This document shows positions 1,081 to 35,767 of a DNA stretch of 64,000 bases, in pieces. Source of the DNA: Hespellia sp. (GTDB lineage Bacteria; Bacillota; Clostridia; Lachnospirales; Lachnospiraceae); contig JAQUUC010000005.1 of the NCBI GenBank assembly GCA_028694105.1, forward strand, positions 37,700 to 101,699, in the 5' to 3' direction. A model generated the notes under the pieces. It was not told the origin of the DNA. It saw only the letters and a program-made list of their open reading frames with translations, and made no database searches. Each line of letters starts with the position of its first letter. Position 1 is the first letter of the stretch. The translations under genes and the position numbers were made by a program.

Positions 1081-4000
1081 CTATTGATTTTTCTTTTTCC
1101 GCATAAATAAGACTGCGCTTCCTGTGCAGGCGGTAATGACTAATACAATAATAGTTCCCAGAAAAGTAGAAGTATCGCCAGTGTTTACTACATCAGATTT
1201 ATGATCTGGTTTTGATGTTGAAGGCTCCTCTTTGTCTGAGCTGGAACCTGTTACAATGACAGTACATTCTGCTGTAAACCCACCATCCAAAGTCTTGGCA
1301 GTTATAACAGTGCTGCCTGCTGCTACGGCATTTACAGCTCCGTTCTTATCAACAGTTGCCACAGAGCTATCTTTGGAAGACCAGATAACATTTTTATCAG
1401 TCGCATCAGAAGGTGTAATAAATGCGGTCAGTGTATCAGTGCCTCCAATCGGCAGGGTAAGTGTATCCTTATCAAGCGTGATGCTGCTGACCGGAACAGG
1501 GGTCTGATCCGATTCATTTACTGTTACAGTACATTCCGCAGTATAGCTGCCATCTACTGTTGTGGCAGTAATCTTGGTAGTTCCTGCTTTCTTGGCAGTG
1601 ATTTTACCATTGTCTGCTTCTGCAACAGTGGAATCTTCAGAACGCCATACAAGGTCTTTATTCGTGGCGTCCTCAGGGCTGATTGTTGCAGTCAGCTCTT
1701 TTGTGTCGCCGATATTCATCGTAAGCTCACTCTCACTTAAAGTCACACCGGTTACCGGAATTGAAGAATCTTTAAAGCGTAACTTTAACGTTGGTGAAGT
1801 AGCCTCTCCAGATTCAGCACTTCCAAATTTAAACTCCTTATTTACCGTAGAGACATTCAGTCCAAAGTTCATAGAAGTATTATCTTCTCTCGTCTGCAAA
1901 AAGCTGTTTACAAGTTTTGTCACATCAATCGTTACAGTTCTTCCGGTTTCTTTTCCGGTAAACCCTTCCGATACAGCAATCGTATTTTCGATATCCTCGG
2001 TGTCATACAGAAGTGCCGGCATACTCTGCCATGTGACTGTCTCAGCATCCCATCCGGATTCAGCCAGTGCTGCCTCAAGATGCGTCTCGGAAGCAGAGTC
2101 ATTATTGCCCTGATAGGTGAGTGTTAAACTTGCGTTTTCTAATTCCTGAGTTAGATCCAGACTGGACATATCGTAATTTAAGTACGCAATTCCGTTATTG
2201 TACCATTCATCAGGACGGCTGCCGTTCTCTGTCGCCCATTCGCCAAAATGCCCGGCTCTTCCGGCCCATAACTTATCAAAGTTACTGTCTTTCTTCATAC
2301 TAAGTATATCAGAGGTACTGTAGTTCTCAGTCCATGAATCGTCGGGAGACTGTACATAGGTATCAGCTGATGGCAGCAGCATAGTCTCAGCAGGATCTGT
2401 CACAGCAGGATCTGTTACAGTTACTGTACATTTAGCTGTGTATCCGCCATCTTGTGATGTTGCAGTAATGACGGCCATGCCGGAGGATTTACCGGTTACG
2501 ATTCCGCTTTCATCAACCTCTGCAACAGTGGCATTGCTGGAAGTCCATGATATATTTTTATTGTCGGCATTGTCTGGAGTTATGGATGCCGTCAGCTTCT
2601 GGCTCGTCTCAACATCAACGGTAAGCTCATTTTCATCCAGAGTGATTCCAGTTACAGGAACTCCATTCTCTTTTGTGTTCAGTATAAGACGGGGCGCATA
2701 CTGTTCACCTGCCTCCTTGCTGCCAATTATGACACGGTTTCCAGTAGCTGCTTCATTCAGAGCAAAGCTAATGGTAGTTGCATCGGGATTATCTCTGACA
2801 AAATTCCGGACCAGTTTTGTGATATCAATATCAACTACCCGGTTCATATCCGAAGTATGGAAAATTTCGGAATAGGCAATCGTATTGGAAGGGTCCGCCG
2901 GGTTATAGTTCACAGCTGGCTGATTACGCCATGTAAGTGTTCCAGCATCTGCTTGATTTCCATTCGCACCTTCACCGTTTTCCTTTCCATTCCCTTCTTC
3001 CCAGTTGTCTTCTGAAAGACTGACCTGAATCTGTTCTCTTTCCGCACTGCCAGCGGCAAGGTCTTCATAAACAACGGAAAGGTATGCACTGTCAACCGTC
3101 TGGTTTTCACCCAGTAAATCAGCAATGTCATATTTTACAAACCCGATTTTACAGTCATAACCATTTTCCGGACGTTCTCCCTCTCCGAAAAGACCTGTGC
3201 TGGCGTGTATGCTTCTTTGCAGCTGAATATGCTTCTCAGAACCATAGTTTTTATCGACTTCCGTGTTCCATGACTGAATCGTGGAATCAGCAGCAGGGAG
3301 TATGCCGGCTCTATTTTCGATTGGGTCAGAGGCTGCATCAAGCTGCTGCAGCTTATCGGCTGAAAATGGTACAACCGTGATTTTGCTGCCGTGTTTGTCG
3401 TTTCCAAAATCCTCTTCCTTTTGCACATCAATGACAGCAAAGGTCATGGCTTTGATGCTGCCGTCCTCGACATAGATGTTCGGACGTTCAAGCTTTGTCC
3501 AGTCATTTACGACACCATTCTCATATCTTAAGAAACCAGCTCCCGGTGTATATGCAATACCCGAATGACGTCTCCATGTTACACCGTCCTCAGAGGTCAG
3601 ATAGTATGCCATACGTGTATCCCACTTGTTTACCACAATATGGTAGAGTCCATCCGAATACCAGATAACCGGATCTTCAATACAAGAAGATGACATTCCG
3701 GGTGTGTTCCACCAGAGTTTGGTGGATTGTACACTCCATTCTCCATCGATAGAATCCGCCCGTGCTATATCTCCATTTCTGTTTGTTGCAATATATTTTC
3801 CATCAGGACCTATCGCGATACTAATATTGGAAAGAGAAAATCGGCTGGTATCAACATTTAACTTTCCATTTTTGCCATTATCGATCAATTCCCATGGACC
3901 GTCAAGACTTTTTGATATATGGAGCGTTCCATTTGCTGTGTCACCATGCATTCCTGTATCGCTGATGGAAATTGCATATCTATAGCCCTTAGCGTATAAA

Positions 4001-4518
4001 GAATCACTTTCACTGATAGCAAAAGGAAAGACATTGTGACCGGCACCTTCACACCACTCGGGCCATAAAGGACCTTTATCCTCGTAAGGACCATATAAAT
4101 TATTGCTGACAGAGTAGATGGCCTGGGAACCCTGCCATCCGGAAATACCATCCTGTCCCCAATGACCGCCTGCCTGATTCCAACGGCTCGCAAACATATA
4201 ATATTTATATTCACCGTTCGGATCAGGATTCTTAATAATAGCTCCATCCCAATAGCAGTAATCTGACAGATCACTATCCTCCAGACCGTTACCCTGATCG
4301 CGTGCTCCGATTACGTCAGCTCCCCAGCAGTCTTCCGAAAGTTCATTGATAATTGGCATAGGCTCAAAACAATCCATAAATTGTTTTACTTCACTCTCTT
4401 CGTTTGTTGTACTAACCGGGGGCTCTGCTGCTGAAAGATTCATCGGCGGTAAAACTGCTGAAAAAAGCAAAGCACCAGTAAGCATACCTACAGCAGCTTT
4501 TTGAAGTATCGTTTTCAT
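1081..4518 (-). CDS. Secreted, wall-anchored glycoside hydrolase-like protein: GH43/62/32/68/117/130-like propeller + 2 DNRLRE-like domains + 3 Big_2 domains
   Basis: Signal peptide. WDG...IEDP...LERP acidic motifs of five-bladed propeller glycosidases. Two PAAD(S/T)...NY...F/L..YD repeats. Three PV(T/S)(G/S)(I/V)TL...YTA(K/E)CTV(T/I)V Ig repeats. C-terminal VNTGD + hydrophobic helix + KKKNQ sorting-type signal. Confidence 0.8.
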   Translation of the reverse strand: MKTILQKAAVGMLTGALLFSAVLPPMNLSAAEPPVSTTNEESEVKQFMDCFEPMPIINELSEDCWGADVIGARDQGNGLEDSDLSDYCYWDGAIIKNPDPNGEYKYYMFASRWNQAGGHWGQDGISGWQGSQAIYSVSNNLYGPYEDKGPLWPEWCEGAGHNVFPFAISESDSLYAKGYRYAISISDTGMHGDTANGTLHISKSLDGPWELIDNGKNGKLNVDTSRFSLSNISIAIGPDGKYIATNRNGDIARADSIDGEWSVQSTKLWWNTPGMSSSCIEDPVIWYSDGLYHIVVNKWDTRMAYYLTSEDGVTWRRHSGIAYTPGAGFLRYENGVVNDWTKLERPNIYVEDGSIKAMTFAVIDVQKEEDFGNDKHGSKITVVPFSADKLQQLDAASDPIENRAGILPAADSTIQSWNTEVDKNYGSEKHIQLQRSIHASTGLFGEGERPENGYDCKIGFVKYDIADLLGENQTVDSAYLSVVYEDLAAGSAEREQIQVSLSEDNWEEGNGKENGEGANGNQADAGTLTWRNQPAVNYNPADPSNTIAYSEIFHTSDMNRVVDIDITKLVRNFVRDNPDATTISFALNEAATGNRVIIGSKEAGEQYAPRLILNTKENGVPVTGITLDENELTVDVETSQKLTASITPDNADNKNISWTSSNATVAEVDESGIVTGKSSGMAVITATSQDGGYTAKCTVTVTDPAVTDPAETMLLPSADTYVQSPDDSWTENYSTSDILSMKKDSNFDKLWAGRAGHFGEWATENGSRPDEWYNNGIAYLNYDMSSLDLTQELENASLTLTYQGNNDSASETHLEAALAESGWDAETVTWQSMPALLYDTEDIENTIAVSEGFTGKETGRTVTIDVTKLVNSFLQTREDNTSMNFGLNVSTVNKEFKFGSAESGEATSPTLKLRFKDSSIPVTGVTLSESELTMNIGDTKELTATISPEDATNKDLVWRSEDSTVAEADNGKITAKKAGTTKITATTVDGSYTAECTVTVNESDQTPVPVSSITLDKDTLTLPIGGTDTLTAFITPSDATDKNVIWSSKDSSVATVDKNGAVNAVAAGSTVITAKTLDGGFTAECTVIVTGSSSDKEEPSTSKPDHKSDVVNTGDTSTFLGTIIVLVITACTGSAVLFMRKKKNQ

Positions 4519-4538: not shown

Positions 4539-5543
4539 TTATTTAACAATCTCTCCATCTTCATCCCAAAGGTCATGCCAGTCATCAGCACCTTCCCATA
4601 AGAATACCTGACCTTTTACAAGGCGGTTATTTTTCTCTAACGTTGCAATTGATGCCATTTCTTCTTCTGTTAAAGGATCTTCTGTCACACATTTCAGGTT
4701 GCTTACATACTCATTTTCATGAATTGAGAATGGAATCGGAATCTGACCGCGCTGTTCTGCCCATTTGATTGCGATCACTGCCGGATGCACTCCGTGAGCT
4801 GCTGCAATTGCTTTGATCTCCGGTGTCTGAATATCAGCAACATCTCCCGGCATCATATCTCTTTCCGGTCTCTGTGGTGAGCCGATTGGCATGAATCCGA
4901 TTGGCTGAATATCGTGTGCTACCAGATAGTCAAATAATTCCTGCTGCTGGAAGCATGGATGTAATTCCATCTCACATACAGTTGGCTGAATCGTCAGTTC
5001 CGAGAGAACTGCTTCCAATTTAGGTATTGTCATGTTCGAAATACCAATATTCTTTACAAGACCTTCTTCTACTAACTTTTCAATCTGACGATAAGTACGA
5101 ACAAATTCTTCTACGCTGAATGGTCTTGAATCAGGATTACGTGAATCGGCATCACAATGTGGTGCATGGTAGTTCGGGAATGGCCAGTGAATAAAGAATG
5201 TGTCAATATAATCGCACTGTAAATCCATGATACTCTTCTTGCAGGATTCTTCTACACGTTCGTGCATATCATTCCAAACTTTTGTCATAATATGAAGTTC
5301 ACTGCGTTCAACAACGCCCTCTTCAAATGCTGCCTTAAATACCTCGCCGATCTGATCTTCATTTTCATAGCATGCTGCGCAGTCAAACAGACGGTATCCG
5401 CAGCGAATTGCTCCTGCTACCGCAGCAGACACCTGTTCTGCTGTGAATCTGTCTGAACCGAATGTTCCCATTCCGATTGCAGGCATTGTGTTTCCATTAC
5501 AAAGCTTTCTTTGTGGTACAATACTTGGACTAATCATTTCCAT
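4539..5543 (-). CDS. Aldo/keto reductase (aldose/aldose-phosphate reductase-like)
   Basis: Catalytic tetrad motifs FDCA..Y, TKVW, IHWP, plus IGISN and E.HP. Confidence 0.9.
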   Translation of the reverse strand: MEMISPSIVPQRKLCNGNTMPAIGMGTFGSDRFTAEQVSAAVAGAIRCGYRLFDCAACYENEDQIGEVFKAAFEEGVVERSELHIMTKVWNDMHERVEESCKKSIMDLQCDYIDTFFIHWPFPNYHAPHCDADSRNPDSRPFSVEEFVRTYRQIEKLVEEGLVKNIGISNMTIPKLEAVLSELTIQPTVCEMELHPCFQQQELFDYLVAHDIQPIGFMPIGSPQRPERDMMPGDVADIQTPEIKAIAAAHGVHPAVIAIKWAEQRGQIPIPFSIHENEYVSNLKCVTEDPLTEEEMASIATLEKNNRLVKGQVFLWEGADDWHDLWDEDGEIVK

Positions 5544-5566
5544 TTTTCTTCCTCCTTAAAATTGTT

Positions 5567-6499
5567 TTATTGAATTTTTTTAATCCCAATGTTGCCAAAC
5601 AGGTTCTCCATGTCCTCTATTACAAAGAATCCCGTTTCTTCCCGCATTGCAGCTGCCGCCGATATTGCACTTGCTTTGCGAAGTGTTTCTTCTATAGATA
5701 AGCCCTCTTCAAATCCAAGGGCAAATCCTGCAATCATAGAATCACCGCAGCCCACGGTATTGACTGCATTGATTTTTGGAACAACTGCCTGATAGACTCC
5801 AGATTCACAGACCAGCATCGAGCCGTCCGCACCGAGTGAGATTACCACCACATCCACGCCTTTTGCATGAATCTCTTTTGCGGCCTCAATCAGTTCTTCC
5901 TTCGAATCGCACCGGCTTCCCGTCAGCATACGGATTTCATCGATATTTGGTTTTATCATTGTCGGTTTTGCCTCTATACCCATGCGAAGCAATTCACCGC
6001 TTGTATCAAGAATCACTTTTTTTCCCGCTTCTTTTACAGTCGAAATCAGCTTCTGATATGCAGTTGCATCTAAGCCCTTCGGAACACTCCCTGACATCGT
6101 TACAACCTCTGCATCTTTCACAAGGCCTTTGAAATGTTCCTGAAATGCCTCAAACTCATCCGGTGATACTGTAAATCCGGGTTCCAGAAATTCAGTCTGC
6201 ACCTTCTTTTCTTCATCCCAGATATTGATACAGCTTCTGCTCTCCGCCTCCAGACGGTAAAACTTGGCTGTGATTCCAAACGGTTTCAGGGAATCTACGA
6301 TATAATCTCCTGCGTGTCCGCCGACAAATCCGGTGGCAACTACATTCGCACCCGCGATGGATGCCGGTTTTGATACATTCAACCCTTTTCCACCCGGTGT
6401 ATAGGTACATTCAAGAACACGATTCACCTCACCCTCCTGCGCACCGGAAACTACATATCGTTTGTCGATAGCTGCATTTAATGTGACTGTTAAAATCAT
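5567..6499 (-). CDS. PfkB-family hexose-phosphate kinase (1-phosphofructokinase/LacC tagatose-6-P kinase type)
   Basis: TLNAAID, PGGKGLNVS, IKPNIDE and NTVGCGDS motifs. Confidence 0.9.
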   Translation of the reverse strand: MILTVTLNAAIDKRYVVSGAQEGEVNRVLECTYTPGGKGLNVSKPASIAGANVVATGFVGGHAGDYIVDSLKPFGITAKFYRLEAESRSCINIWDEEKKVQTEFLEPGFTVSPDEFEAFQEHFKGLVKDAEVVTMSGSVPKGLDATAYQKLISTVKEAGKKVILDTSGELLRMGIEAKPTMIKPNIDEIRMLTGSRCDSKEELIEAAKEIHAKGVDVVVISLGADGSMLVCESGVYQAVVPKINAVNTVGCGDSMIAGFALGFEEGLSIEETLRKASAISAAAAMREETGFFVIEDMENLFGNIGIKKIQ

Positions 6500-6511
6500 T
6501 TTTCTCTCCTC

Positions 6512-7561
6512 CTATGCCTGACTGTCAATCAGAATTTTACCTTTCACGGTTCCCGGTGTTTTATACAGTTCAAATGCACTCGCAATCTCGCTGAGCGGAA
6601 CTTTCTTGAAGATAAAGGAATCATCGAATTTTAAATCTCCTGTCTTGAAGTAATGTGCTGCAAGTTCCCATTCTGCGCCAGGGAATGGTGCACTGTATGA
6701 CATCCATGACCCGGTCAGCGTAAATTCTTTGCGGTTCATGTTCTCCCATTCCTTCACCGTAAAGGAAATCTCTTTCGTAGGTGTTCCGACAAAGCATACC
6801 TGTGCTTTGTTGGCAGCCAGCTCAAATGCCATCTTCATGGTAATCGTATTTCCCGCTGTCTCGTATACATAGTCAAAGCCTTTTCCATCTGTCATCTTCA
6901 TAGCTTTTTCCATGAAATTATTTTCCAGTGTATTAATTCCTTCTGTTGCACCAAGACGTTTTCCAAGCGCCAGTCTCTCGTCAGCTATATCGAATACAGC
7001 CACCTTCTTTGCTCCGAAAATTTTTGCCCACTGCATAACGAACATACCAATTGTACCTCCGCCCAGAATGGCCACGGTCTTTCCGCCTTTATAATCGACT
7101 CTCTGAAGTCCATGAAGCGCTACGGTTGCAGGTTCAAAGAATGCCCCCTGCTCAAAGGATACTGTATCCTCAAATTTAACTGCATTTTTTTCAGGTACAA
7201 CGACATATTCCGCAAAGCTTCCATATTCTCTGGAGCCGATAAAACTATAATGCTTGCAGAGAGAATAATTTCCCTTCTGGCAGTCTTCACATTCCATACA
7301 CGGAACAAGCGGAACTCCGGCAACTCTGTCACCTGCCGCTACAGATGTTACTCCTTCCCCAACTTCCTCTACGACACCGGAAAATTCATGTCCCAATACA
7401 TTTGGGAAGAAATGACATGCATCGCCATTGACACGTGGAACATCAGAGCCACAAATGCCGGTATATTTTACTTTAATTAAAACCTGACCTTTTTTGGGTA
7501 CTGGTTTTTCAATTTCCTCATAACGCAGATCATTTTTTGCATGTACAACTCCTGCTTTCAT
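6512..7561 (-). CDS. gatD: Galactitol-1-phosphate 5-dehydrogenase-like Zn-dependent dehydrogenase
   Basis: CGSD, GHEFSG, C-x2-C-x2-C-x7-C Zn site, GGGTIG with an acidic NAD-type residue, and the GatD-like C-terminal GSWMSYSAPFPG.EW. Confidence 0.8.
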   Translation of the reverse strand: MKAGVVHAKNDLRYEEIEKPVPKKGQVLIKVKYTGICGSDVPRVNGDACHFFPNVLGHEFSGVVEEVGEGVTSVAAGDRVAGVPLVPCMECEDCQKGNYSLCKHYSFIGSREYGSFAEYVVVPEKNAVKFEDTVSFEQGAFFEPATVALHGLQRVDYKGGKTVAILGGGTIGMFVMQWAKIFGAKKVAVFDIADERLALGKRLGATEGINTLENNFMEKAMKMTDGKGFDYVYETAGNTITMKMAFELAANKAQVCFVGTPTKEISFTVKEWENMNRKEFTLTGSWMSYSAPFPGAEWELAAHYFKTGDLKFDDSFIFKKVPLSEIASAFELYKTPGTVKGKILIDSQA

Positions 7562-9084
7562 TCTTTACTGCCTCCGTTTTTCTTCATAATATCTTTTAGA
7601 TTTTGATAGATTGCGAGATATGTCTCGTAGTTTTTCTGATAGATTCTGTGGTTTTCCATGTTTGGTTCATGTCTTCTTGTAACCTTCACCGTCATCTTGA
7701 CAGCTTCTTCAAAGCTGTTATATAATCCGACCCCGACTCCCGCCAGAATCACAGCACCAAGTGTTGTCGCTGTGTCGGATGCCGGAACTGCAATTGGTTT
7801 TCCGGTGACATCTGATTTAATCTGTGTCCACAAATGTGAATTCGCTGATCCGCCCATCGCCCAGAGTTCATCGGCCTTCGCGCCGGTCTCCTGCGCAATA
7901 TCGAGATTGTGTTTCAATGCAAGTGCCACACCTTCCATTGATGCGCGCACCATATGTCCTTTTGTCTTGCTAAAGTCCAGTCCGTAATATACGCCTTTCG
8001 CGTTTGGATCCCAGATTGGCGATCTCTCACCGGACATATATGGCAGAAATACTACTCCGTCAGATCCCGCCGGAACCTGCTCTGCAATTTCATTCAGCTG
8101 ATTCAGTGAGGATTTGCCGCATACATCTGCTTTCATCCGCTCGCTCTCAGCAAATTCTCTTTCAAACCATCGCATCACTCCGCCGCCGCCTGTTGTTCCG
8201 CCCTGCAGGAGCCACTGTCCGGGCACAACATGTGGACTTAAAATCAGTCTTGGATCTGCGGCATATGTATCCATACTGATGCTCATACCACCGGCCTGTC
8301 CTCCCTGCTCCTGCGTCTGACCCGGTTTTACGACACCCGCGCCAAGCGTTCCGCAGGCCGCATCCAGTCCGCCGGCAACAACCGGTGTTCCGGCAGCCAG
8401 TCCGCATTCCTCCGATGCCTTTGCCGTGACGTTTCCCACGACCTGATGGCTTGGAACCAGCTCTGGCAGAAAGCTTCTCGGAATTTCAAGTGCTTCACAC
8501 ATCTCGTCATTCCACTCCTGCTTTCTCATGTCAAAACAGTGGATTCCGTAGCCCTGTGACAAATCGTGTGTAATTTCTCCAGTCAGACGAAAGGCAATAA
8601 ATGCATTCGACTGCAGAATCTTGTATATGTTGCAGTAAACCTCCGGCATCTGCTCATGATACCAGACGATTTTTGCGGTTGTGTAAGATGGCTGCAATGA
8701 ATTTCCAGACAACTCGAAAATCCGGTCTGCACCGATTTTTTGATTTAAACGGTCACAGATACTCTGTGCTCTGGTATCCATCCAAATCGGTGTATTCGCC
8801 AGAACATTTCCATCCTTGTCGATCGGGATCGCCGACCAGCTCTGTCCGTCAATACCGACGCCTGCGATGTCCTCCGGTTTGATCTGGTAAGCCGAAAGCA
8901 TCTGTTTGATTGCTTTGCATACCGCACTCCACCATTCATCCGGATTCTGTTCTGCCCATCCTTCCTTCGGATAGTAAACCTGATAATCGCCGGTCGTTGA
9001 TGCAACGACCGTTCCGTCCTTCTCAAATAATGCAATTTTACAAGCACTCGTTCCAATATCAATTCCCAATAAATATTTTTTCAT
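7558..9084 (-). CDS. FGGY-family carbohydrate kinase (xylulokinase-like, substrate uncertain)
   Basis: GIDIGTSACK, WMDTRA, AGGLDAACG, PYMSGER, GGSANSHLW. Start set at ATG 9084 (AAGGAG RBS); the ORF track start at 9111 is also possible. Confidence 0.88.
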   Translation of the reverse strand: MKKYLLGIDIGTSACKIALFEKDGTVVASTTGDYQVYYPKEGWAEQNPDEWWSAVCKAIKQMLSAYQIKPEDIAGVGIDGQSWSAIPIDKDGNVLANTPIWMDTRAQSICDRLNQKIGADRIFELSGNSLQPSYTTAKIVWYHEQMPEVYCNIYKILQSNAFIAFRLTGEITHDLSQGYGIHCFDMRKQEWNDEMCEALEIPRSFLPELVPSHQVVGNVTAKASEECGLAAGTPVVAGGLDAACGTLGAGVVKPGQTQEQGGQAGGMSISMDTYAADPRLILSPHVVPGQWLLQGGTTGGGGVMRWFEREFAESERMKADVCGKSSLNQLNEIAEQVPAGSDGVVFLPYMSGERSPIWDPNAKGVYYGLDFSKTKGHMVRASMEGVALALKHNLDIAQETGAKADELWAMGGSANSHLWTQIKSDVTGKPIAVPASDTATTLGAVILAGVGVGLYNSFEEAVKMTVKVTRRHEPNMENHRIYQKNYETYLAIYQNLKDIMKKNGGSKE

Positions 9085-9107
9085 AAGCGCTCCTTTTATG
9101 TACTCCA

Positions 9108-9962
9108 TCATTCGTTTACTTTTCCATCACATCCGCAGACTCTCATGCGATTCTTCACAAGCTCTGTCACAGCAGCCATTCCAACTTTGCCAAATGCTTT
9201 TGGATCAAATGTCTCCGGTTTTTCTATGATCAGCTTCTTGATGGCATCTGTGTATGCAACCCGAAGCTCTGTTGCGAAATTCACTTTGCAGATTCCTCTT
9301 CTCACGCAGTCGCTTACCTCTTCGTCTGAGATTCCGGATGCACCGTGAAGTACAAGCGGAATTGAAACCAGCTTTTTGATTTCATCCAGACGAGTCTTGT
9401 CAAGTACCGGTGTTCCTACATAAAAGCCGTGTGCCGTACCAATTGCAACTGCGAGTGAATCAATTCCTGTTCTCTCAACAAATTCAGCCGCTTCCTGTGG
9501 ATCTGTGTTGGTATCGGTCTCAACCTCTAACTCATCTTCTTTTCCCCCAACCTTGCCGAGCTCAGCCTCAACCGGAATATCGTGTTTTTTTGCTTCTTCC
9601 ACTACCTTTTTCGTAACTGCGATATTTCCTTCAAATTCCTCTTTTGAGCCATCAATCATAACCGAAGAGTATCCGTCCTCCAGACACTGCTTTGCAAGTT
9701 CGTAGCTGCTTCCGTGATCCAAGTGCAGACATACCGGTACTGTTGCTTTTTTCGCTTCCGCTGCAACAATTGCTGCAAAGGTCTCAACCGTTCCATATTG
9801 AATCGTAGAAGGTGTTGTCTGCAACATGACCGGTGCTTTCACTTCCTCTGCTGCTTTGATAACAGCTTTCACCATTTCCATGTTTTCTACATTGAATGCT
9901 CCTACTGCATAATTGCCCGCCTGAGCGTCTAATAACATTTTCTTTGATGTAACTAATGGCAT
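9108..9962 (-). CDS. Class II ketose-bisphosphate aldolase, tagatose-1,6-bisphosphate aldolase (GatY/KbaY)-like
   Basis: LHLDHG, EAELG, IGTAHG, LVLHGASG. KVNFATE resembles GatY/KbaY KVNVATE rather than FbaA KINVNTE. Confidence 0.88.
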   Translation of the reverse strand: MPLVTSKKMLLDAQAGNYAVGAFNVENMEMVKAVIKAAEEVKAPVMLQTTPSTIQYGTVETFAAIVAAEAKKATVPVCLHLDHGSSYELAKQCLEDGYSSVMIDGSKEEFEGNIAVTKKVVEEAKKHDIPVEAELGKVGGKEDELEVETDTNTDPQEAAEFVERTGIDSLAVAIGTAHGFYVGTPVLDKTRLDEIKKLVSIPLVLHGASGISDEEVSDCVRRGICKVNFATELRVAYTDAIKKLIIEKPETFDPKAFGKVGMAAVTELVKNRMRVCGCDGKVNE

Positions 9963-10095
9963 CTTAATTTCCTCCTTGTGGAATCCAAATTGATTTGTGC
10001 TTTAACTATATGCTGATTATATTCCCCTTTCGCCCATGATTTAATAGAGGAACTTGACAGTTTGAGCTTTATAATGTCGCATTTGCGCAAATTTG

Positions 10096-10124
10096 TTGCA
10101 TACTGTCCATTTTCCTGATAAAAT
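10096..10124 (+). promoter_or_regulatory. SigA-type promoter for the divergent araC gene
   Basis: TTGCAT-17 bp-TAAAAT. Confidence 0.6.
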
Positions 10125-10159
10125 GGAAGCATAAAAACAGATCAGGAAAGGATTTTGTC

Positions 10160-11020
10160 ATGAAAACAGTCTATACCGATTTAAATATTAAATTCCGTAT
10201 CGGGGATATCACTTTTTCTGCATTGAATATCATTTACGAACAGTTTCAGCGCAAAATCCCGAAGCACAGCCACGGATTGGACAGCTATGAAATCCACTAC
10301 ATTTCCCAAGGACACGGAACAGCAAAGATTGACGGGAAAATTTATCACATCGAGCCTAACGCGCTCTATATCACCGGTCCGAATGTAGAGCACGAACAGT
10401 ACCCGGAAGAAGAAGACCCGATGACGGAATACTGCATTTATCTCAAAATCAAAAAAAACCGGACGCAGCACAGAGATCAGGCGGATATGCCTTTTCTGAA
10501 TTTATTTGAGCAGACTTATTTCTGGTATGGTGCGGACACGCAGGACATTTATACGCCAATGCAACAGATTTTCTACGAATTGGAACATGAATACACGGGG
10601 TACATCACACAGGTTGAGACGCTTCTCCAGCAATGTATCGTCAAGATTGTGAGAAATTATGAGATCCAGCAGCGTTCTCCGGTTCATTTTGCCCCTTCCA
10701 ATCTGGTGGACAGTAAATATATTATCGTTGAGGAATGTTTTCTGTACGAATACCGGGATATTACGCTTCAGGATCTCTCCAGACGTCTGGGGCTAAGTAC
10801 CCGGCAGACAGAACGTTTTCTAAAAGAAAACTATGGGATGACATTTCTGCAAAAAAAGACAGAGGCCAAAATGTCTATGGCCGCTGTCTTATTAGGCGAT
10901 TTGAATCATAGTATTACAAAGGTCTCCGATGACCTCGGTTACTCTTCTCTTGAGCATTTTTCACATGCCTTCAAGAAATATTACGGAGTAACGGCAAGGC
11001 AGTACCGGAAACAACTCTAA
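10160..11020 (+). CDS. AraC-family regulator (cupin + HTH), probable regulator of the divergent sugar operon
   Basis: Cupin HSH...YEIHYI..G.G. C-terminal HTH LGYSSLEHFSHAFKKYYG. Confidence 0.9.
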   Translation: MKTVYTDLNIKFRIGDITFSALNIIYEQFQRKIPKHSHGLDSYEIHYISQGHGTAKIDGKIYHIEPNALYITGPNVEHEQYPEEEDPMTEYCIYLKIKKNRTQHRDQADMPFLNLFEQTYFWYGADTQDIYTPMQQIFYELEHEYTGYITQVETLLQQCIVKIVRNYEIQQRSPVHFAPSNLVDSKYIIVEECFLYEYRDITLQDLSRRLGLSTRQTERFLKENYGMTFLQKKTEAKMSMAAVLLGDLNHSITKVSDDLGYSSLEHFSHAFKKYYGVTARQYRKQL

Positions 11021-13463: not shown

Positions 13464-15260
13464 TTACAGCTTGTAAAGTGGACCATAGTTCTTGCAAGCT
13501 CTGTAATCCTGACCTTCTTTGTTTTCGCCGAATGAGTTCCATGCTGCTGGTCTGAAGATATCTTCTTCAGGTATGTTGTGCATAGATACCGGAATACGAA
13601 GGATTGAGCAAAGTGTGAGTAAATCTGCTCCAATATGTCCATATGCAGATGCACCGTGGTTCGCTCCCCAGTTATTCATAACATCGTAAGCTGTCTTGAA
13701 TGCGCCTTTTCCTGTTGTTCTTGGTGCAAACCATGTACATGGCCATGTGTAGTCTGTTCTCTTCCAAAGCTTATCAGAAACCTCTTCCGGAAGCTGAACG
13801 GTCCATCCTTCTGCGATCTGCATAACAGGTCCGAGTCCCTTTACAAGATTCAGACGAATCATCGTACAAGGCATCTCGTATTTTGTTTCAAATCTTGAAG
13901 AATATCCGCCGCCTCTGAAGTATCCGTTATCCGCTGCGCACCACTCTGTCGCTTTCAGGATTGCTTCCTGATCCGCTTCTGTCACGTCATACCAAGGTTT
14001 AATTACGTGGTTTCCGTTCTCATCTACTGCTTCTCCGTTAAAGTCAAGGCAGGATGCACCTGAGTTGATTAAGTGTAAGAATCCCTGAGATTCTTTTGCA
14101 ACACCTGTCAGCTCATATCCGGTTGCTTTCTTAACAGCCTCCGGGCTCCAGTATGTACGAACATCGGAGAACATAGATGCTGTGTTTGTTAATAATTTTT
14201 CAAATAACATTCCAAGACCGTTGAGTACATCATTCTCTGTAGCAAGGATGTATGGCTCTCTTGCTCCGTTCCAGTCAAATGAAGTATTGAGTAATGCTTC
14301 CGGATAGTCACAGTTTGGATAGAAGTCTGTCCACTGTCTCTGTCCCTGGAATCCTGCTGCAATTGCATTGTGTCCGACTGCTTCTTCTTCACATCCCTCA
14401 GGAAGATTCTGATTTCCATTCATCAGGTCTTTGATGATACACATCATCTTAACAACGAATTCCCAATCAGCTTCTTTCTGTTCAGGTGACTTCTTAATCT
14501 CATCCGGGTTCTTGTCGAATCCTTCTGGGCATTTCTCTTTTGTCCAGGCTAATGCTTTCTGGTATTCTGCTTCATCGTAAATGTTCTCTGACATACGACG
14601 GATTACTTCAACTTCATCTACTGACTCCACACGCATACCAAGGTATTCCTCGATAAATGCAGGATCAATGATAGATCCGCCGATTCCCATCGTAACGGAA
14701 CCGATCTGTAAGTATGATTTACCTCTCATCGAAGCTGCTGCAACTGCTGCACGTCCGAAACGAAGTAATTTTGTCTTAACATCTTCCGGAATCTCTGTAG
14801 CGTCAGCTTCCTGAACGTCATGTCCGTAAATACCAAATGCAGGAAGACCTTTCTGTGCATGTGTAGCAAGTATAGATGCAAGATATACAGCTCCCGGTCT
14901 CTCTGTTCCGTTGAATCCCCATACAGCTTTGATTGTATGCTTATCCATATCCATCGTCTCAGCACCGTAGCACCAGCAAGGTGTTACAGAAAGAGTGATA
15001 TCTACACCCTCTTTTTTGAATTTTGCTTCGCATGCTGCTGCTTCTGCAACACGTCCAATTGATGTATCCGCGATGACAACCTTGACGGGTTCGCCGTTCG
15101 AATATTTCAGGTTGGATGTGAACAGCTCAGCTGCCTGCTTCGCCATTCCCATTGTCTGATCCTCCAGTGATTCTCTTACCTTCAAGTACCCTCTACGACC
15201 GTCAATGATTGGTCTGATTCCGATGACTGGATAGTCCCCAATTAATCTGCTTTTTGCCAT
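13464..15260 (-). CDS. fucI: L-fucose isomerase (L-fucose/D-arabinose isomerase)
   Basis: [49 protein letters not shown]; 598 aa. Confidence 0.95.
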
Positions 15261-15384
15261 GATAAAATACCTCCTTAAATAATAACAACTTATTGTTTGA
15301 TAATGTCATTATAACCCAGCGCGAAACGTTTTTTTTGTTCAATAACGGCAAATTAATATAATAATATTCACTTATCATTTTATT

Positions 15385-26118: not shown

Positions 26119-27918
26119 TTACTTTTTTTGTGCATCAATTCTGTCGTTCAGGTCATTCAAATAGAGCCACCGGTCCATTTTTTCTTCCAGCTCAGCTTCC
26201 GCCGCAGTTTTTTCTTCCATGAGTTCGTTGAGCTTTCCATAATCACTTGCATTCTTCGCCACTTCCTCTTCCAGCGAAGAGATCTTAGCTTCCAAAGCAG
26301 CTATCTCATCATCAATCACTTCAAATTCCTGTTTTTCTTTATAACTGAACTTCAAAGTCCGCTCTGTTTTCCATGAATCTGTTTTCAGGTCATTCCCGGC
26401 TGACGAATCGGAGGAGGAATGTTCCACTCCAGCCTCCGGTCTTATCAGCAGATAATCGGAATAGCCGCCCTCATATTGATGGATGGCTCCATCGCCCTCA
26501 AACGCAAAAATTCTGCGCACAATACGGTCCAGAAAATACCGGTCATGAGATACCGTAATTACAATACCGTCAAAATGATCCAGATAATCTTCCAGAATCG
26601 TCAGTGTCTGAATGTCCAGATCATTGGTCGGCTCATCCAGAATCAGTACGTTCGGCGCACTCATTAAGACACGAAGCAAATACAGTCTTCTCTTTTCTCC
26701 GCCGGATAGTTTTCCAATCAGAGCGTACTGCATAGACCCCTCAAACAAGAATCTCTCCAGCATCTGCGAGGCAGTAATCATGCCATCGGTCGTCTGAATA
26801 TATTCCCCTACCTCTTTCATATAGTCGATCACACGGATAGAATCATCCATGTATTCATTCTCCTGAGAGAAATATCCGATGCGAATTGTCTCACCGATTT
26901 CAATCGTTCCACTGTCCGCAGGAACCACACCTGTGATAATCTTAAGCAGGGTGCTTTTACCGCAGCCATTTTCACCAATGATACCGATACGGTCATTTTT
27001 CAGGAAAATGTACGTAAACTCTTCCATCAGCTTCCGCTCGCCATAAGCCTTGCAGATCCCCTCAAGTTCAATGGTCTTCTTTCCCATTCGCGATGAAACC
27101 GAATTCATTGTAACCGAAGAATCCGTCTCCGGGGCCTTTCTTTCCTGCATCTGTTCAATACGCTCGATATGTGCCTTCTGTTTGGTAGAACGGGCTCTTG
27201 CCCCGCGGTGGAGCCACTCCAGTTCCGTGCGAAGCAGACTCTGCCTTTTTCGCTCAGTCGCAAGTGCCATATCCTGACGCTGTGCTTTGAGTTCTACAAA
27301 TTCCGAATAATTGCCCGGGTAGGAATAAATTTTTGCACGGTCAATCTCATCAATTCTGGTCGCAACACGGTCCAGAAAATATCGATCATGGGTTACCATC
27401 ACGATTGCTCCCTTAAATGCAATCAGATACTCCTCCAGCCAGGATGAAATCGCATTATCCAAATGGTTGGTAGGTTCATCCAGAATCAATATCTCTACAG
27501 GCGCCAAAAGAGCGTTGCCTAAAGCAACCCTCTTTCGCTGTCCTCCTGATAAATGTTCTACCTTCTCATCATACGACGGAAGCTCCAGCCTCTGAATCAT
27601 TGCTTTCGCTTCACTTTCGATAGACCATTCATTCATCTCGGTTCTATTATCTTTTAGAACGGCCTGCAGGATCGTTGTTCCCGGCTCAAACTCCGGAGTC
27701 TGTGGAAGATAGCGCAAATGCACCTGATTTCCCTTCGTCACACTTCCCTCGTCTGTGTTCTCCATACCGGCAACTATTTTCAGCAGCGTCGATTTACCAG
27801 TTCCATTGATCCCAACGATCCCAATCTTCTCATGCTCATTGATACTGAAATTCACCTGATCCAATAAGACACGGTCGGTAAATGCCTTGGTCACATTTTC
27901 CATGGTTAATAAATTCAT
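26119..27918 (-). CDS. ABC-F family ATPase (Uup/YfmR-like)
   Basis: Two NBDs ([14 protein letters not shown] and [14 protein letters not shown]), no TM segments, C-terminal coiled coil. ATG overlaps the galE stop (ATGA). Confidence 0.92.
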
Positions 27919-28931
27919 GATCTGTATCCGTCCGGATTCATAGACTGCCATTTCCATGAGTCTGCACACATCTCTTCGATGCCACGCTCAGCCACCCAGC
28001 CAAGTTCATTCTTTGCATTTGCAGGGTCTGAATAGCACGTTGCAATATCTCCGGCACGTCTTGGTTTGATTTCATAAGGGAGTGTTTTTCCACATGCCTT
28101 CTCATATGCATGAAGAATATCCAGTACGCTGTATCCAACGCCTGTGCCAAGATTGTACACATTCACGCCCTTGGTCTCTTTCATTTTCTCAATTGCCTTT
28201 ACATGTCCGATGGCAAGATCGACAACATGGATGTAGTCTCTGACACCAGTTCCGTCCGGAGTATCATAGTCATCACCGAACACACCGAGGCTCTTTAATT
28301 TGCCGACTGCAACCTGTGCAATATAAGGAACCAGGTTGTTCGGGATTCCCTTCGGATCCTCTCCGATTCTTCCCGACTCATGTGCTCCGATTGGATTAAA
28401 GTAACGAAGAAGCATCACATTCCACTCCGGATCTGCTTTTGCAATATCCATCAGAATCTGCTCCAGCATACCCTTTGTCTGTCCGTATGGGTTCGTAATC
28501 TCGCCCTTTGGACAATTCTCTGTAATCGGAATCTCTGCCGGATCACCGTACACCGTTGCCGATGAACTAAATACAATGTTCTTGCATCCGTGGTTTCTCA
28601 TCACATCACAGAGAATCAATGTACCTGTAATGTTGTTATGATAATATTCCCATGGTTTCGCAACCGATTCTCCAACTGCCTTCATACCGGCAAAATTGAT
28701 GACTGATTCAATGTTCTCTTTCTCAAAGACTTCTTCGAGATCTTCACGATTCAGACAGTCTCCTTTATAAAATTTCAGATCTTTTCCGGTCAGTTCTTTG
28801 ACACGGTCCAGAGACACCTCACAAGAATTTGAAAGGTTATCAAATACAACCACTTCAAATCCTCTGTTTAACAATTCAATACAGGTATGACTTCCAATAT
28901 AACCTGCTCCTCCTGCAACTAAAATAGCCAT
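27915..28931 (-). CDS. galE: UDP-glucose 4-epimerase
   Basis: [44 protein letters not shown]. Confidence 0.97.
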
Positions 28932-29102
28932 GATAAATCCTCCTTGTTCGTCTGATTATAATCTTGTGCTTTCATATAATGCTTTATTGCTGATTGCCTG
29001 CATACATTTCTAGTATACCATGCTTTGCAAATTCATGAAATGCAATTTATTTCCATATTTTATGCAAAATCACCTGATTTTTCAGCAATCTGCTATGTTA
29101 GT

Positions 29103-30023
29103 CTATTTCCACAGATATTTCGGATACAGCCCCTGCGCTTTCATTTCTTTGATCGCTGCAACAACAACAGGTTTATCTTCTTTATATGTAACACCGTACC
29201 ATCTGTCTGTAGACTTGAGCACCTCTACGGTCGCCTTATCCTCTTTCAGGAGCTGATCCACTACACTTGGAAGGAAATATTCACACTTCATTGGATTCGT
29301 CTTCAGATTCTCGTCAAGGAATTTTGGAAATCTGTCCTTTAACTCTGTCAGGATACTCTTCGTGAAACCAAACATATTCATAGACACGATCGATTCCGGG
29401 GAAATACGTTCCCACGTCTTTCCGTCATCCTCCGTAAATGCGGCACCGTCTGCTGTCTTTTCGATATGAGTACGCTCTACGATATTTGCAAGAAAACCAT
29501 TCTCATCGGTCTCGCAGACACCACGCGCAACATGTCCATTCTCTGTCAGTGTGTTCTTTAAAATATAACCAACCATTGTATACCGGTATTTCTCATCATC
29601 CTCGTGTGTAGACAGATAATCATAGATAATCTGAAGTGCATGCTGTCCATAATAATCGTCCGCGTTGATGACGGCAAACGGACCATCCACAGTGCCAAGA
29701 CAGCTTAAGATTGCATGTCCCGTTCCAAATGGTTTCACGCGTCCCTCCGGCACTTCATATCCTTCCGGAATGTTGTGCAGATCCTGAAATACATACGACA
29801 CGTCCATCTGCTCGCTCATGCGGTCACCGATGCTTGCTTTGAAATCTGCTTCATTTTCTTTTTTTATAATAAATACAAGCTTCTCAAATCCTGCTTTTTT
29901 CGCATCGTAAATACAGAAGTCCATGATAATATGTCCCTGCTCATCCACCGGATCAATCTGCTTCAATCCCCCATATCTGCTTCCCATTCCTGCCGCCATG
30001 ATTACTAATACTGGTTTATTCAT
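29103..30023 (-). CDS. Sugar-1-phosphate nucleotidyltransferase (NTP_transferase/GT-A fold)
   Basis: MAAGMGSRYGGLKQ, KPFGTGHA, INADDYYG. Confidence 0.85.
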   Translation of the reverse strand: MNKPVLVIMAAGMGSRYGGLKQIDPVDEQGHIIMDFCIYDAKKAGFEKLVFIIKKENEADFKASIGDRMSEQMDVSYVFQDLHNIPEGYEVPEGRVKPFGTGHAILSCLGTVDGPFAVINADDYYGQHALQIIYDYLSTHEDDEKYRYTMVGYILKNTLTENGHVARGVCETDENGFLANIVERTHIEKTADGAAFTEDDGKTWERISPESIVSMNMFGFTKSILTELKDRFPKFLDENLKTNPMKCEYFLPSVVDQLLKEDKATVEVLKSTDRWYGVTYKEDKPVVVAAIKEMKAQGLYPKYLWK

Positions 30024-30135
30024 TTTCTTACCTCCATTTTCCTATCTTAGGATATACCTATTACCCTAACTCTGTCCACATTTTTTCCAAAGAATCGTAT
30101 GAACTACAAATGAATGACACCTTCCGTTGTATTTT

Positions 30136-35562: not shown

Positions 35563-35587
35563 ACCTCTTATGATTTTATTTTTGCTA

Positions 35588-35767
35588 TTATTTAAATTGC
35601 CGATTATAATTCCACAGCAGCAAAATCAGTCCGGCAATTCCAATCAATTGCATCCCCAGTCCTTTTACGCCTATATCCCTCTGACCTGCTATGACAAGCA
35701 AAACAGAGACAGCAAAGATAATCAGGTAAATGATGATCTTTATAATTTTTTTTGTTGATTCGTTCAT
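35588..35767 (-). CDS. 59-aa two-TM membrane protein (DUF6903-like), absent from the ORF track
   Basis: GGAGGA RBS. ATG at 35767, TAA at 35588. MNESTKKIIKIIIYLIIFAVSVLLVIAGQRDIGVKGLGMQLIGIAGLILLLWNYNRQFK fills the gap between the permease and lnpA. Confidence 0.8.
   Translation of the reverse strand: MNESTKKIIKIIIYLIIFAVSVLLVIAGQRDIGVKGLGMQLIGIAGLILLLWNYNRQFK

Follow-up and report, generated by a model that had tools for sequence, protein, structure and literature searches.

The window, a stretch of 64,000 nt from Hespellia sp., a gut-dwelling member of the Lachnospiraceae, contains five co-directional minus-strand ORFs in the order aldolase, FGGY kinase, dehydrogenase, PfkB kinase and aldo-keto reductase (AKR). 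The features of the locus are as follows.

9108..9962, minus strand: GatY-like class II ketose-1,6-bisphosphate aldolase, 284 aa (PF01116, NCBIfam GatY subfamily)
7558..9084, minus strand: XylB-like FGGY kinase, 508 aa (FGGY_N, FGGY_C, TIGR01312)
6512..7561, minus strand: GatD-type Zn-dependent MDR dehydrogenase, 349 aa (PDB 4a2c match, NCBIfam GatD)
5567..6499, minus strand: PfkB-family hexose-phosphate kinase, 1-PFK/LacC group, 310 aa (TIGR03168, TIGR03828)
4539..5543, minus strand: aldose-reductase-like AKR, 334 aa (PF00248)
10160..11020, plus strand: divergent AraC-family regulator, 286 aa (AraC_binding, HTH_18 domains)
9963..10159, strand not applicable: intergenic regulatory region between the aldolase operon and the AraC gene, holding the palindrome CATTTGCGCAAATT
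1081..4518, minus strand: surface protein, 1145 aa (DNRLRE/CBM96, Big_2 domains)
13464..15260, minus strand: L-fucose isomerase FucI, 598 aa (all three FucI Pfam domains)

The five genes are tightly spaced, as an earlier note on this DNA had stated: they are separated by gaps of 12-23 nt or overlap by 4 nt, as do the FGGY stop and the dehydrogenase start. The family calls of that note for the five products were upheld by Pfam, NCBIfam and PDB matches. The longest FGGY ORF opens at 9111, but translation probably begins with the ATG at 9084, because the ribosome-binding site AAAGGAG lies upstream of it and homologues are 503-508 aa long. No PTS or permease genes were found inside the five-gene operon. 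The AraC regulator, presumed to activate the operon, has orthologues of 55-65% identity that are equally divergent in Robinsoniella and at loci L023 and L039.

The gene for the surface protein opens 20 nt past the AKR stop and is probably co-transcribed with the operon. The protein consists of an uncharacterised N-terminal domain, two DNRLRE/CBM96 domains and three Big_2 domains. Its N-terminal 390 aa gave no Pfam or PDB match, and their AlphaFold2 single-sequence model had a pLDDT of just 31. No homologue of the putative catalytic part was found among 160 related loci, and the protein is outside the conserved module.

Family assignments of the five enzymes

The best PDB match of the dehydrogenase was E. 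coli GatD (4a2c, 1e-73; next match 1e-48), with 40% identity over 314 aa and a single one-residue gap. GatD was also its best NCBIfam match, at 312 bits and thus far under the cut-off of 550; this score and the mere 40% identity count against the galactitol pathway proposed below. Orthologues of 81-85% identity are present in classical gat operons without FGGY, which read PRD-regulator, IIA, IIB, IIC, aldolase, dehydrogenase, PfkB, and whose IIC and IIB share 53-57% and 55% identity with GatC and GatB of E. coli, respectively. In the dehydrogenase tree, PTS-linked and FGGY-linked members interleave in a shallow radiation. Since its close orthologues sit in GatC/GatB PTS operons, the dehydrogenase is predicted to act on galactitol-1-P as a 5-dehydrogenase, yielding D-tagatose-6-P. 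A GatD-type hexitol-phosphate enzyme needs a phosphorylated substrate, which would therefore be made in the cytoplasm, as the earlier note had argued. This argument is supported by the genome, which has no GatC orthologue; the single EIIC-GAT protein encoded there shares 23% identity with GatC and belongs to an unrelated RuBisCO-like-protein operon.

The aldolase matched PF01116 at 8.8e-104, scored 380 bits against the NCBIfam GatY subfamily (cut-off 383) and is 44% identical to E. coli GatY. It is predicted to cleave D-tagatose-1,6-bisphosphate into DHAP and D-glyceraldehyde-3-P, and two further class II FBA paralogues in the genome, 37-40% identical to it, can serve glycolysis. The PfkB kinase scored above the cut-offs of TIGR03168 (335 bits, cut-off 216) and of the 1-PFK model TIGR03828 (312 bits, cut-off 292), and below those of the LacC models (265 and 240 bits; cut-off 469 for the former). 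Its predicted role is that of a tagatose-6-P 1-kinase.

The FGGY kinase has FGGY_N and FGGY_C domains and scored 407 bits against TIGR01312 (XylB, cut-off 380), as compared with 142 bits for FucK and 67 bits for RhaB, which are C1-kinase models. Because a second, far stronger XylB (588 bits) is encoded on contig C70 and xylose isomerase is absent from the genome, the operon FGGY is not the housekeeping xylulokinase. Of 76 well-flanked FGGY loci, 72 also contain the dehydrogenase orthologue, and the kinase is predicted to be a hexitol (galactitol) kinase producing L-galactitol-1-P. Three points count against a galactitol kinase: the XylB threshold is passed, the usual substrates of FGGY kinases in this subfamily are ketoses, and we know of no FGGY hexitol kinase.

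The best PDB match of the AKR was mannose-6-P reductase (7s5f, 8.6e-51), followed by aldehyde reductase and aldose reductase; the resemblance to aldose/aldehyde reductases counts for an aldose-reduction step. In the D-Y-K-H tetrad, K and H are present in 77/77 orthologues and D and Y in 76/77, the remaining one being X. The canonical NADPH motif IPKS....R begins with IPFS in 77/77 orthologues, and its Arg position is occupied by N, E or H in 76/77. The residues binding the 2'-phosphate of NADPH have thus been lost, and the AKR is probably NADH-linked. The enzyme is predicted to reduce an aldohexose (L- or D-galactose) to galactitol.

Related loci and transport genes

We surveyed 160 related loci and counted as well-flanked the 96 with at least 5 kb on either side; the two locus sets were seeded with the window's own proteins and include near-duplicates, and the counts are not independent events. 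The module is widespread, being present in 14% of the sampled Lachnospiraceae genera. FGGY and PTS are alternative feeders of one core: among the well-flanked loci, 71 have FGGY and the dehydrogenase without PTS, 16 have PTS and the dehydrogenase without FGGY, and just 1 has both PTS and FGGY. Four or five loci hold a Gat PTS plus FGGY, which would be redundant under the proposed pathway and counts against it. The AKR depends on FGGY, with which it occurs in all 60 well-flanked AKR loci, none of them with a PTS; FGGY and the dehydrogenase occur without AKR in 16. FucU is confined to AKR loci (44/60 versus 0/36). A GatZ/KbaZ-like protein stands in for PfkB in 13 of the 96, and variant loci hold it either in place of PfkB or together with it. 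These variants preserve the tagatose-phosphate theme, which supports the galactitol/tagatose reading.

Robinsoniella peoriensis divides the pathway exactly at the joint predicted by this reading. One operon contains AraC, FGGY, AKR, a KdgT-type permease and FucU, and the other contains the aldolase, the dehydrogenase (83% identical) and PfkB with neither PTS nor FGGY. The earlier note had offered three cytoplasmic sources of galactitol-1-P. Gene co-occurrence favours the first, in which the AKR reduces galactose to galactitol and FGGY phosphorylates it; the other two, in which FGGY makes galactose-6-P or L-tagatose-1-P for subsequent reduction by the AKR, are unable to explain the 16 AKR-less FGGY loci.

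The note had also found no transporter of any kind, but this transporter-less look is a window-edge artefact. LacI-controlled importer genes lie on the operon's strand outside the window, 1.8-9 kb before its start (C75:28739-37078). Besides a LacI regulator, FucU and a RhaB-like kinase, they encode a CUT2 ABC importer made up of a 366-aa lipoprotein SBP, an ATPase and two permeases. In the relatives L125, L167, L107 and L114 and in Blautia-type loci, the genes for this transporter and FucU directly adjoin the module. The LacI operator GCGAAACGTTTCGC precedes this ABC operon, and 11 of its 14 bases match before fucI; it is absent from 9963..10159 upstream of the aldolase operon. Since the operon is served by a separate AraC regulator and lacks the LacI operator, which counts against a shared importer in this genome, we infer its use of the importer from the relatives only. 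Transporter types differ among loci (ABC, KdgT-type, PTS). The KdgT-type permeases, found in five loci, might indicate that the substrate is an acid and count against L-galactose.

Proposed pathway and its alternatives

We consider it an even chance that the operon encodes a PTS-independent galactitol/tagatose-6-phosphate pathway, in which a cytoplasmic feeder replaces transporter-linked phosphorylation. Observed are the content and order of the genes, the families of their products, the orthology of the dehydrogenase to Gat PTS-linked members and the co-occurrence rules; all substrates, whether the AKR acts before FGGY, the cofactor preferred and the sugar imported are predicted. A galacto-series aldohexose would be imported, likely via the nearby CUT2 ABC system with the FucU mutarotase, and the AKR, probably with NADH, would turn it into meso-galactitol. 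The FGGY kinase would then form L-galactitol-1-P, whereas in E. coli galactitol is phosphorylated by GatABC. The GatD-type dehydrogenase would oxidise L-galactitol-1-P with NAD+ to D-tagatose-6-P, the PfkB kinase would make D-tagatose-1,6-bisphosphate, and the GatY-like aldolase would cleave the latter into DHAP and D-glyceraldehyde-3-P. The reduction by the AKR and the oxidation by the dehydrogenase would balance. Judging from gene context, our best guess for the sugar is L-galactose, the alternatives being D-galactose or free galactitol. The fucose genes (FucU, FucI, the RhaB-like kinase, a FucA-like aldolase on contig C92, and the common LacI operator) point to the L-series, and D-galactose already has a route because a Leloir galactokinase is encoded in the genome.

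It is unlikely, though worth weighing, that the same architecture serves another substrate (D-altritol or D-talitol from D-altrose or D-talose, or a directly imported hexitol), or that the AKR has a separate job, such as the reduction of L-lactaldehyde or L-glyceraldehyde arising in the adjacent fucose pathway, while the module consumes imported galactitol. The fucose-rich neighbourhood of the AKR and the varied transporters are consistent with this, but altrose and talose occur very rarely in nature. That D-tagatose is also formed from D-altritol in Agrobacterium, as cited in PMC9720028, favours another substrate. In the PTS operons, however, the dehydrogenase orthologues are accompanied by GatC/GatB orthologues, which argues for galactitol, and the AKR lies inside the operon, strictly with FGGY, and occurs with a FucA-like aldolase in 0/3 loci.

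A rather improbable scheme starts with isomerisation: FucI would convert L-galactose to L-tagatose, the operon FGGY or the neighbouring RhaB-like kinase would make L-tagatose-1-P, and the AKR would reduce C2 to give L-galactitol-1-P for the GatD-type enzyme, PfkB and the aldolase. FucI lies 3.5 kb from the module here and within 9 kb of it in 15 AKR-containing loci but in none without AKR; in L125 and L167 a single block combines the module with FucI, FucU, the ABC system and a RhaB-like kinase, and the top AKR match is a sugar-phosphate reductase. On the other hand, the 16 AKR-less loci include PTS+FGGY and Dorea-type aldolase-FGGY-dehydrogenase-GatZ loci, and the FGGY product there must therefore go straight to the dehydrogenase. 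FGGY scored weakly on the C1-kinase models, and we know of no AKR that reduces a ketose-1-phosphate. FucI is monocistronic and carries the LacI operator of the ABC/FucU/RhaB-like operon, being one gene of a fucose-type regulon under LacI control to which the importer and FucU also belong; given this operator and the FucA-like aldolase, it is explained by an ordinary L-fucose pathway.

It is improbable that the sugars are oxidised before phosphorylation, as in the fungal xylose reductase/xylitol dehydrogenase/xylulokinase route and in mycobacterial and rhizobial galactitol routes, with the Zn-dehydrogenase making D-tagatose from AKR-derived galactitol and FGGY acting as a tagatose 6-kinase ahead of PfkB and the aldolase. 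The three families and the XylB-level score fit the fungal scheme, and PMC9720028, with its references, presents galactitol to D-tagatose to tagatose-6-P as an established pathway type. Yet the dehydrogenase orthologues directly behind the GatC/GatB-type PTS have no free-ketose kinase and hence accept a phosphorylated hexitol, GatD is the closest structure and model by a wide margin over sorbitol/xylitol dehydrogenases, and Robinsoniella places FGGY with AKR and the dehydrogenase in another operon, so that FGGY adjoins AKR in the pathway.

Relation to known systems

The proposed galactitol pathway shares with E. coli gatYZABCD plus PfkA the oxidation of galactitol-1-P to D-tagatose-6-P by a Zn-MDR GatD and a class II GatY-type aldolase that splits tagatose-1,6-bisphosphate into DHAP and GAP (40% and 44% identity, respectively), and Gram-positive gat operons with GatC/GatB orthologues contain close relatives of its dehydrogenase. 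Unlike the E. coli system, the operon lacks a GatABC PTS, and neither a GatC orthologue nor GatZ is encoded in the genome; the place of PfkA is taken by a dedicated PfkB, there are in addition a soluble FGGY kinase and an AKR, and the regulator is AraC-type instead of the DeoR-type GatR. The fungal oxidoreductive pentose pathway likewise combines an AKR, a Zn-dependent MDR and a XylB-like FGGY, and reduces an aldose to a polyol that is re-oxidised at another carbon. In contrast, the order predicted here is reductase, kinase, dehydrogenase, with the polyol phosphorylated first, a hexose as substrate and a ketohexose bisphosphate as the aldolase-cleaved end product. Phosphorylation of a free polyol by an FGGY kinase followed by polyol-phosphate oxidation has a precedent in the Brucella erythritol pathway, where the erythritol kinase EryA precedes the erythritol-phosphate dehydrogenase EryB, although that polyol is C4, the dehydrogenase is FAD-dependent and GlpD-type rather than Zn-MDR, and the downstream chemistry differs.

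PTS-independence itself is already published: an ABC transporter with a PfkB-type tagatose kinase feeds tagatose-6-P in the E. coli Nissle 1917 tag cluster, Sinorhizobium meliloti tagABCDE and the Agrobacterium tumefaciens C58 D-altritol/galactitol pathway, which end in a tagatose-bisphosphate aldolase in E. coli Nissle and a GatZ-like tagatose-6-P epimerase in rhizobia (PMC9720028). The present system resembles these in its proposed PTS-independent entry into tagatose-6-P, its likely CUT2-type ABC importer and the GatZ-like genes of its relatives. In those systems, however, the substrate of the PfkB-type kinase is free D-tagatose, and oxidation of hexitols comes first, at the level of the free sugar, whereas the present operon encodes an FGGY-family kinase and an AKR that would open an aldose entry, and phosphorylation is predicted before oxidation because the dehydrogenase is a GatD-type hexitol-phosphate enzyme. 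L-galactose, possibly the same substrate, is catabolised in a similar setting (gut or plant glycans) by Phocaeicola vulgatus and Luteolibacter sp. LG18 via L-galactonate to D-tagaturonate and beyond, according to PMC12632266 and its reference 16. Such catabolism is oxidative and initially non-phosphorylative, whereas the proposed route is reductive and phosphorylative via galactitol.

In agreement with the claim of an undescribed route, our literature search for an FGGY/AKR entry into tagatose-6-P found no paper describing one. Since galactitol is meso, such a route would lead from an L-sugar to the usual sugar phosphates of the D-series. The new element is the kinase and reductase entry predicted from the genes, rather than PTS-independence as such.

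Genes and enzyme families of the operon

The module lies in a 3.2-Mb Lachnospiraceae genome (99% complete), in which the window corresponds to C75:37700-101699. Its five genes are tightly packed, with junctions that either overlap by 4 nt or leave gaps of 12-23 nt, and an AraC regulator is transcribed divergently from them.

Genes of the module and its adjacent regulator (positions in the window)
10160-11020, divergent from the five-gene operon: AraC regulator
9962-9108, minus strand: aldolase, ORF of 284 aa
9111-7558, minus strand: FGGY kinase, longest ORF of 517 aa
7561-6512, minus strand: Zn-dehydrogenase, ORF of 349 aa
6499-5567, minus strand: PfkB kinase, ORF of 310 aa
5543-4539, minus strand: aldo-keto reductase (AKR), ORF of 334 aa

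The FGGY gene probably starts at ATG 9084 rather than at 9111, which overlaps the aldolase stop, since a ribosome-binding site (AAAGGAG) precedes ATG 9084 and the resulting protein of 508 aa fits the homologues (503-508 aa). The nearest homologues of this kinase are 88-91% identical, and one of them is labelled Hespellia sp.

Profile searches upheld the families to which an earlier note had assigned the five proteins. The aldolase belongs to class II and is 44% identical to E. coli GatY; it scored 380.1 bits on the GatY subfamily model (cut-off 383) and 333 bits on TIGR01858 (cut-off 443). The PfkB kinase stayed below both LacC models (265, cut-off 469; 240, cut-off 410) and exceeded the 1-PFK cut-off, which places it in the 1-PFK/LacC group acting on hexose phosphates. 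Equivalents of the galactose-6-P isomerase LacAB and of LacD were absent from the operon. Outside the operon, the genome has other paralogues of the class II aldolase and one more PfkB, suggesting that the operon copies are dedicated to the pathway of the module.

The FGGY kinase scored 407 bits on the XylB model TIGR01312, above the cut-off of 380. With 588 bits, a paralogue on another contig (C70) scored higher on this model, and xylose isomerase is absent from the genome, so that the module kinase is probably not the housekeeping xylulokinase. The conserved partners of its gene are genes of the GatD, PfkB, and GatY types. Its stop overlaps the start of the dehydrogenase gene, and the two genes are neighbours in nearly all related loci. 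FGGY orthologues at least 56% identical occurred in 42 of 301 Lachnospiraceae genomes, a sample spanning 300 genera, and the module was found in about one in seven of the sampled genera, including Blautia, Dorea, Faecalicatena, and Robinsoniella.

Supply of the hexitol phosphate

The best NCBIfam match of the dehydrogenase was GatD (312 bits, under the equivalog cut-off of 550). Among solved structures E. coli GatD (4a2c) matched at 1e-73 and the runner-up at 1e-48, and the alignment with E. coli GatD showed 40% identity across 314 residues with one single-residue gap. A contig scan centred on the dehydrogenase revealed many metagenome operons composed of a PRD regulator, the PTS components IIA, IIB, and IIC, an aldolase, a dehydrogenase, and a PfkB kinase, without FGGY. 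Their dehydrogenases are 81-85% identical to that of the window, and their IIC and IIB share 53-57% and 55% identity with GatC and GatB of E. coli, respectively. Judged by sequence, these are Gram-positive gat operons, and since they carry GatC/GatB orthologues, their dehydrogenase must act on the PTS product, galactitol-1-P. A quick maximum-likelihood search on 93 sequences placed PTS-linked and FGGY-linked dehydrogenases intermixed in a shallow radiation, with E. coli GatD as a distant outgroup. The close orthologues behind a GatC/GatB-type PTS and the interleaved tree thus support the proposal of the earlier note that the window dehydrogenase would need a phosphorylated hexitol.

No GatABC PTS genes are present inside the five-gene operon. 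The earlier note had considered that a gat-type PTS might exist elsewhere; the genome does contain one Gat-family PTS, on contig C71, but it belongs to an unrelated operon and its IIC, the sole EIIC-GAT protein of the genome, is only 23% identical to E. coli GatC. The genome thus has no GatC orthologue, and with this low identity and separate operon the C71 system is unlikely to be a hidden supplier of galactitol-1-P. The C71 operon (C71:4317-12813, outside the window), the only one of this PTS family in the genome, encodes IIC (482 aa), IIB, IIA, a HAD phosphatase, a RuBisCO-like protein (446 aa), two FAD oxidoreductases, and a 347-aa protein without a Pfam match; DeoR, PtsI, and HPr adjoin it.

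The neighbourhood survey suggested in the earlier note was carried out on 160 related loci, 80 seeded by FGGY from genomes and 80 seeded by the dehydrogenase from metagenomes. Co-occurrence was counted in the 96 loci flanked by 5 kb or more on either side, both sets having been seeded by the window's own proteins and including near-duplicates. FGGY and the dehydrogenase without a PTS were found in 71 of the 96 loci, and a PTS and the dehydrogenase without FGGY in 16. PTS and FGGY stood together in one (four or five over all 160). AKR was present in 60 loci, always with FGGY (60/60) and never with a PTS, and FGGY occurred without AKR in another 16. FucU accompanied AKR in 44 of 60 loci, as against none of the 36 others; FucI was confined to 15 of the AKR loci. 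GatZ (PF08013), which had no match anywhere in the source genome, occurred in 13 of the 96 loci, mostly those without PfkB. In Robinsoniella peoriensis, one operon contains AraC, FGGY, AKR, a KdgT-type permease, and FucU, and a second contains the aldolase, the dehydrogenase (83% identical), and PfkB, without PTS or FGGY.

These patterns can be explained by a core that the loci share, made up of the dehydrogenase, the aldolase, and either PfkB or GatZ, with the Gat PTS and FGGY as alternative feeders. If the two are interchangeable in this way, FGGY would be a galactitol kinase whose product matches that of the PTS. AKR together with FucU would be an add-on converting an imported aldose into the hexitol. 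This model corresponds to the option of the earlier note in which AKR forms galactitol and FGGY phosphorylates it. It appears to be the simplest reading of the locus co-occurrence, and we give it an even chance of being correct.

Among the alternatives, it is unlikely, though conceivable, that the same architecture serves a different substrate or that AKR plays a different role. A route that begins with the isomerase FucI, which corresponds to the option of the earlier note in which L-tagatose-1-P is reduced at C2, is more doubtful. In this route, as in the remaining option of the earlier note (FGGY making galactose-6-P for an aldose-6-P reductase), AKR must act after FGGY, which cannot account for the 16 loci with FGGY and dehydrogenase but no AKR. 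The fungal-style order of reductase, dehydrogenase, and kinase, with a free ketose, is similarly doubtful and clashes with the hexitol-phosphate specificity predicted for the dehydrogenase.

Several Lachnospiraceae loci (L041, L043, L066, L078) carry FGGY as well as a PTS of the Gat type, the latter with two IIC paralogues, ahead of the dehydrogenase, PfkB, and aldolase genes. Two further loci (L077 and L109) look like truncated forms of such operons, their PTS being unconfirmed. The apparent redundancy of these PTS and FGGY operons is well explained by no model.

Reductase, sugar, and importer

In profile searches AKR was similar to aldose reductases, and it contains the tetrad D54, Y59, K88, and H119. 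Among 77 orthologues, the Lys and His are present in all and the Asp and Tyr in 76, the remaining one reading X. The canonical IPKS....R motif reads IPFS in 77/77, Lys being replaced by Phe, and its Arg position is occupied by N, E, or H in 76/77. In aldose reductase, the Lys and Arg of this motif bind the 2'-phosphate of NADPH, and their replacement suggests that AKR is an NADH-linked catabolic reductase. The NAD-linked dehydrogenase would then pay back the redox cost of the AKR step.

Galactitol is the probable hexitol, to judge from the GatY-like aldolase, the presence of GatZ in variant loci, and the GatC/GatB proteins that accompany the dehydrogenase orthologues. Both D- and L-galactose give meso-galactitol on reduction. 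The genome encodes a Leloir galactokinase, so that D-galactose is already served by a route. The surroundings of the module are of the fucose type, with FucU, FucI, and a RhaB-like kinase, and a FucA-like aldolase occurs on contig C92 and in the related locus L114. L-Galactose is 6-hydroxy-L-fucose, and to our knowledge no other common analogue of fucose allows phosphorylation at both ends. From this gene setting and the two phosphorylatable ends, L-galactose is our best guess for the aldose. The FucA-like class II aldolase of C92 (C92:23608-24459, outside the window) ends in a Cys-rich tail (CHNCGGC) and, as estimated by eye, is about 80% identical to the one adjoining a RhaB-like kinase in L114.

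The earlier note had described the module as transporter-less. This was an effect of the window edge, as a CUT2-type ABC importer lies just past the window start:

C75:28739-37078, same strand as the module, outside the window: LacI regulator, CUT2-type ABC importer, FucU/RbsD, RhaB-like FGGY kinase

The importer consists of two ABC permeases, an ATPase, and a 366-aa lipoprotein substrate-binding protein (SBP), and the region also encodes a 146-aa protein without assigned function. In two related metagenome loci (L125 and L167) module and importer are fused in the order LacI, FGGY, dehydrogenase, AKR, GatZ, permease, ATPase, permease, SBP, FucU, a 146-aa-type protein (x146), and RhaB-like kinase, and FucI and an aldolase adjoin this block. 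In Blautia-type loci, FucU lies upstream of the module, and a two-component system together with a CUT2 ABC transporter follows downstream of it.

A perfect palindrome, GCGAAACGTTTCGC, which is a LacI-type operator, precedes lacI (C75:37127). Copies matching 12/14 and 11/14 precede the ABC permease gene (C75:35957) and fucI (window ~15310-15330), respectively. A LacI operator common to the five-gene operon and the ABC/FucI genes was rejected, because the palindrome is absent from the module promoter region. This distribution argues that the importer and FucI form a small fucose-type LacI regulon excluding the five-gene operon, which would answer to its own AraC. A paralogue of this AraC (49% identical) lies within C69:74728-83918, outside the window, divergent from a gene for an 1806-aa secreted protein; the latter and the product of the next gene are GH95-like, with 26-29% identity to the GH95 of locus L005.

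Two neighbours of the module were considered as clues to the sugar. An intracellular GH95 is encoded in a lacto-N-biose-type operon, 22 kb from the module inside the window; this linkage did not recur in the 160 loci, and as a feature of the genome and window elsewhere it is weak context for L-fucose or L-galactose. The operon (27915-39072, minus strand), of the lacto-N-biose/galacto-N-biose type, encodes an SBP, two permeases, lacto-N-biose phosphorylase, GH95, an APH-type kinase, a nucleotidyl transferase, and an epimerase, and is accompanied by an AraC regulator (39337-40209). The second is a 1145-aa surface protein (1081-4518, minus strand), which begins 20 nt past the AKR stop. Its N-terminal ~390 aa had no Pfam or PDB match and a pLDDT of 31 in single-sequence AlphaFold2. 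Across the 160 loci, the catalytic part of this protein showed no conservation next to the module, and the protein was dropped as a clue.

Relation to known pathways and implications

The core of the module would work in the same way as that of E. coli gat, whereas GatABC and GatZ, both defining there, are missing from the module. The Lac tagatose-6-P pathway (LacABCD) employs the class I aldolase LacD, in contrast to the class II aldolase here. A PTS-independent entry into tagatose-6-P is known in E. coli Nissle, Sinorhizobium, and Agrobacterium, where a PfkB-type kinase, alongside a CUT2 ABC importer, acts on free D-tagatose (PMC9720028); the module PfkB, by its profile scores, falls into the 1-PFK/LacC group of hexose-phosphate kinases. 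Published bacterial routes for L-galactose are oxidative (PMC12632266 and its reference 16). What would be new is the predicted order, in which the sugar is reduced, the polyol phosphorylated, and the polyol phosphate oxidised, together with the enzyme families assigned to it. No paper tying galactitol to an FGGY kinase was found in the searchable literature, and the remark that the route is undescribed agrees with our searches on galactitol kinase and L-galactose catabolism, which gave none.

Combined with the best guess for the aldose, the galactitol kinase model gives a dedicated reductive, phosphorylative L-galactose pathway of gut Firmicutes, which we put forward tentatively. An NADH-type aldose reductase would collapse L-galactose to meso-galactitol, FGGY would phosphorylate the end stemming from C1 of the L-sugar, and the GatD-type enzyme would oxidise the opposite end. 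As a net result, an L-hexose would be converted to D-tagatose-6-P and then to two triose phosphates without the need for an epimerase.

If the galactitol kinase model is right, an FGGY protein now auto-annotated as 'xylulokinase' would have a new activity, that of an ATP-dependent galactitol kinase. It would be the first soluble kinase known for hexitols, a functional stand-in for the PTS and an extra entry point to the tagatose-6-phosphate pathway. The evolution of the pathway would be modular, a single catabolic core being combined with swappable feeders: a PTS in some cases and in others a kinase, alone or joined by a reductase. The finding would also correct annotations that are systematically wrong in metabolic reconstructions of gut microbiomes, and would account for a possible use, by abundant human-gut Firmicutes, of L-galactose or galactitol derived from sweeteners and from the glycans of plants and algae.
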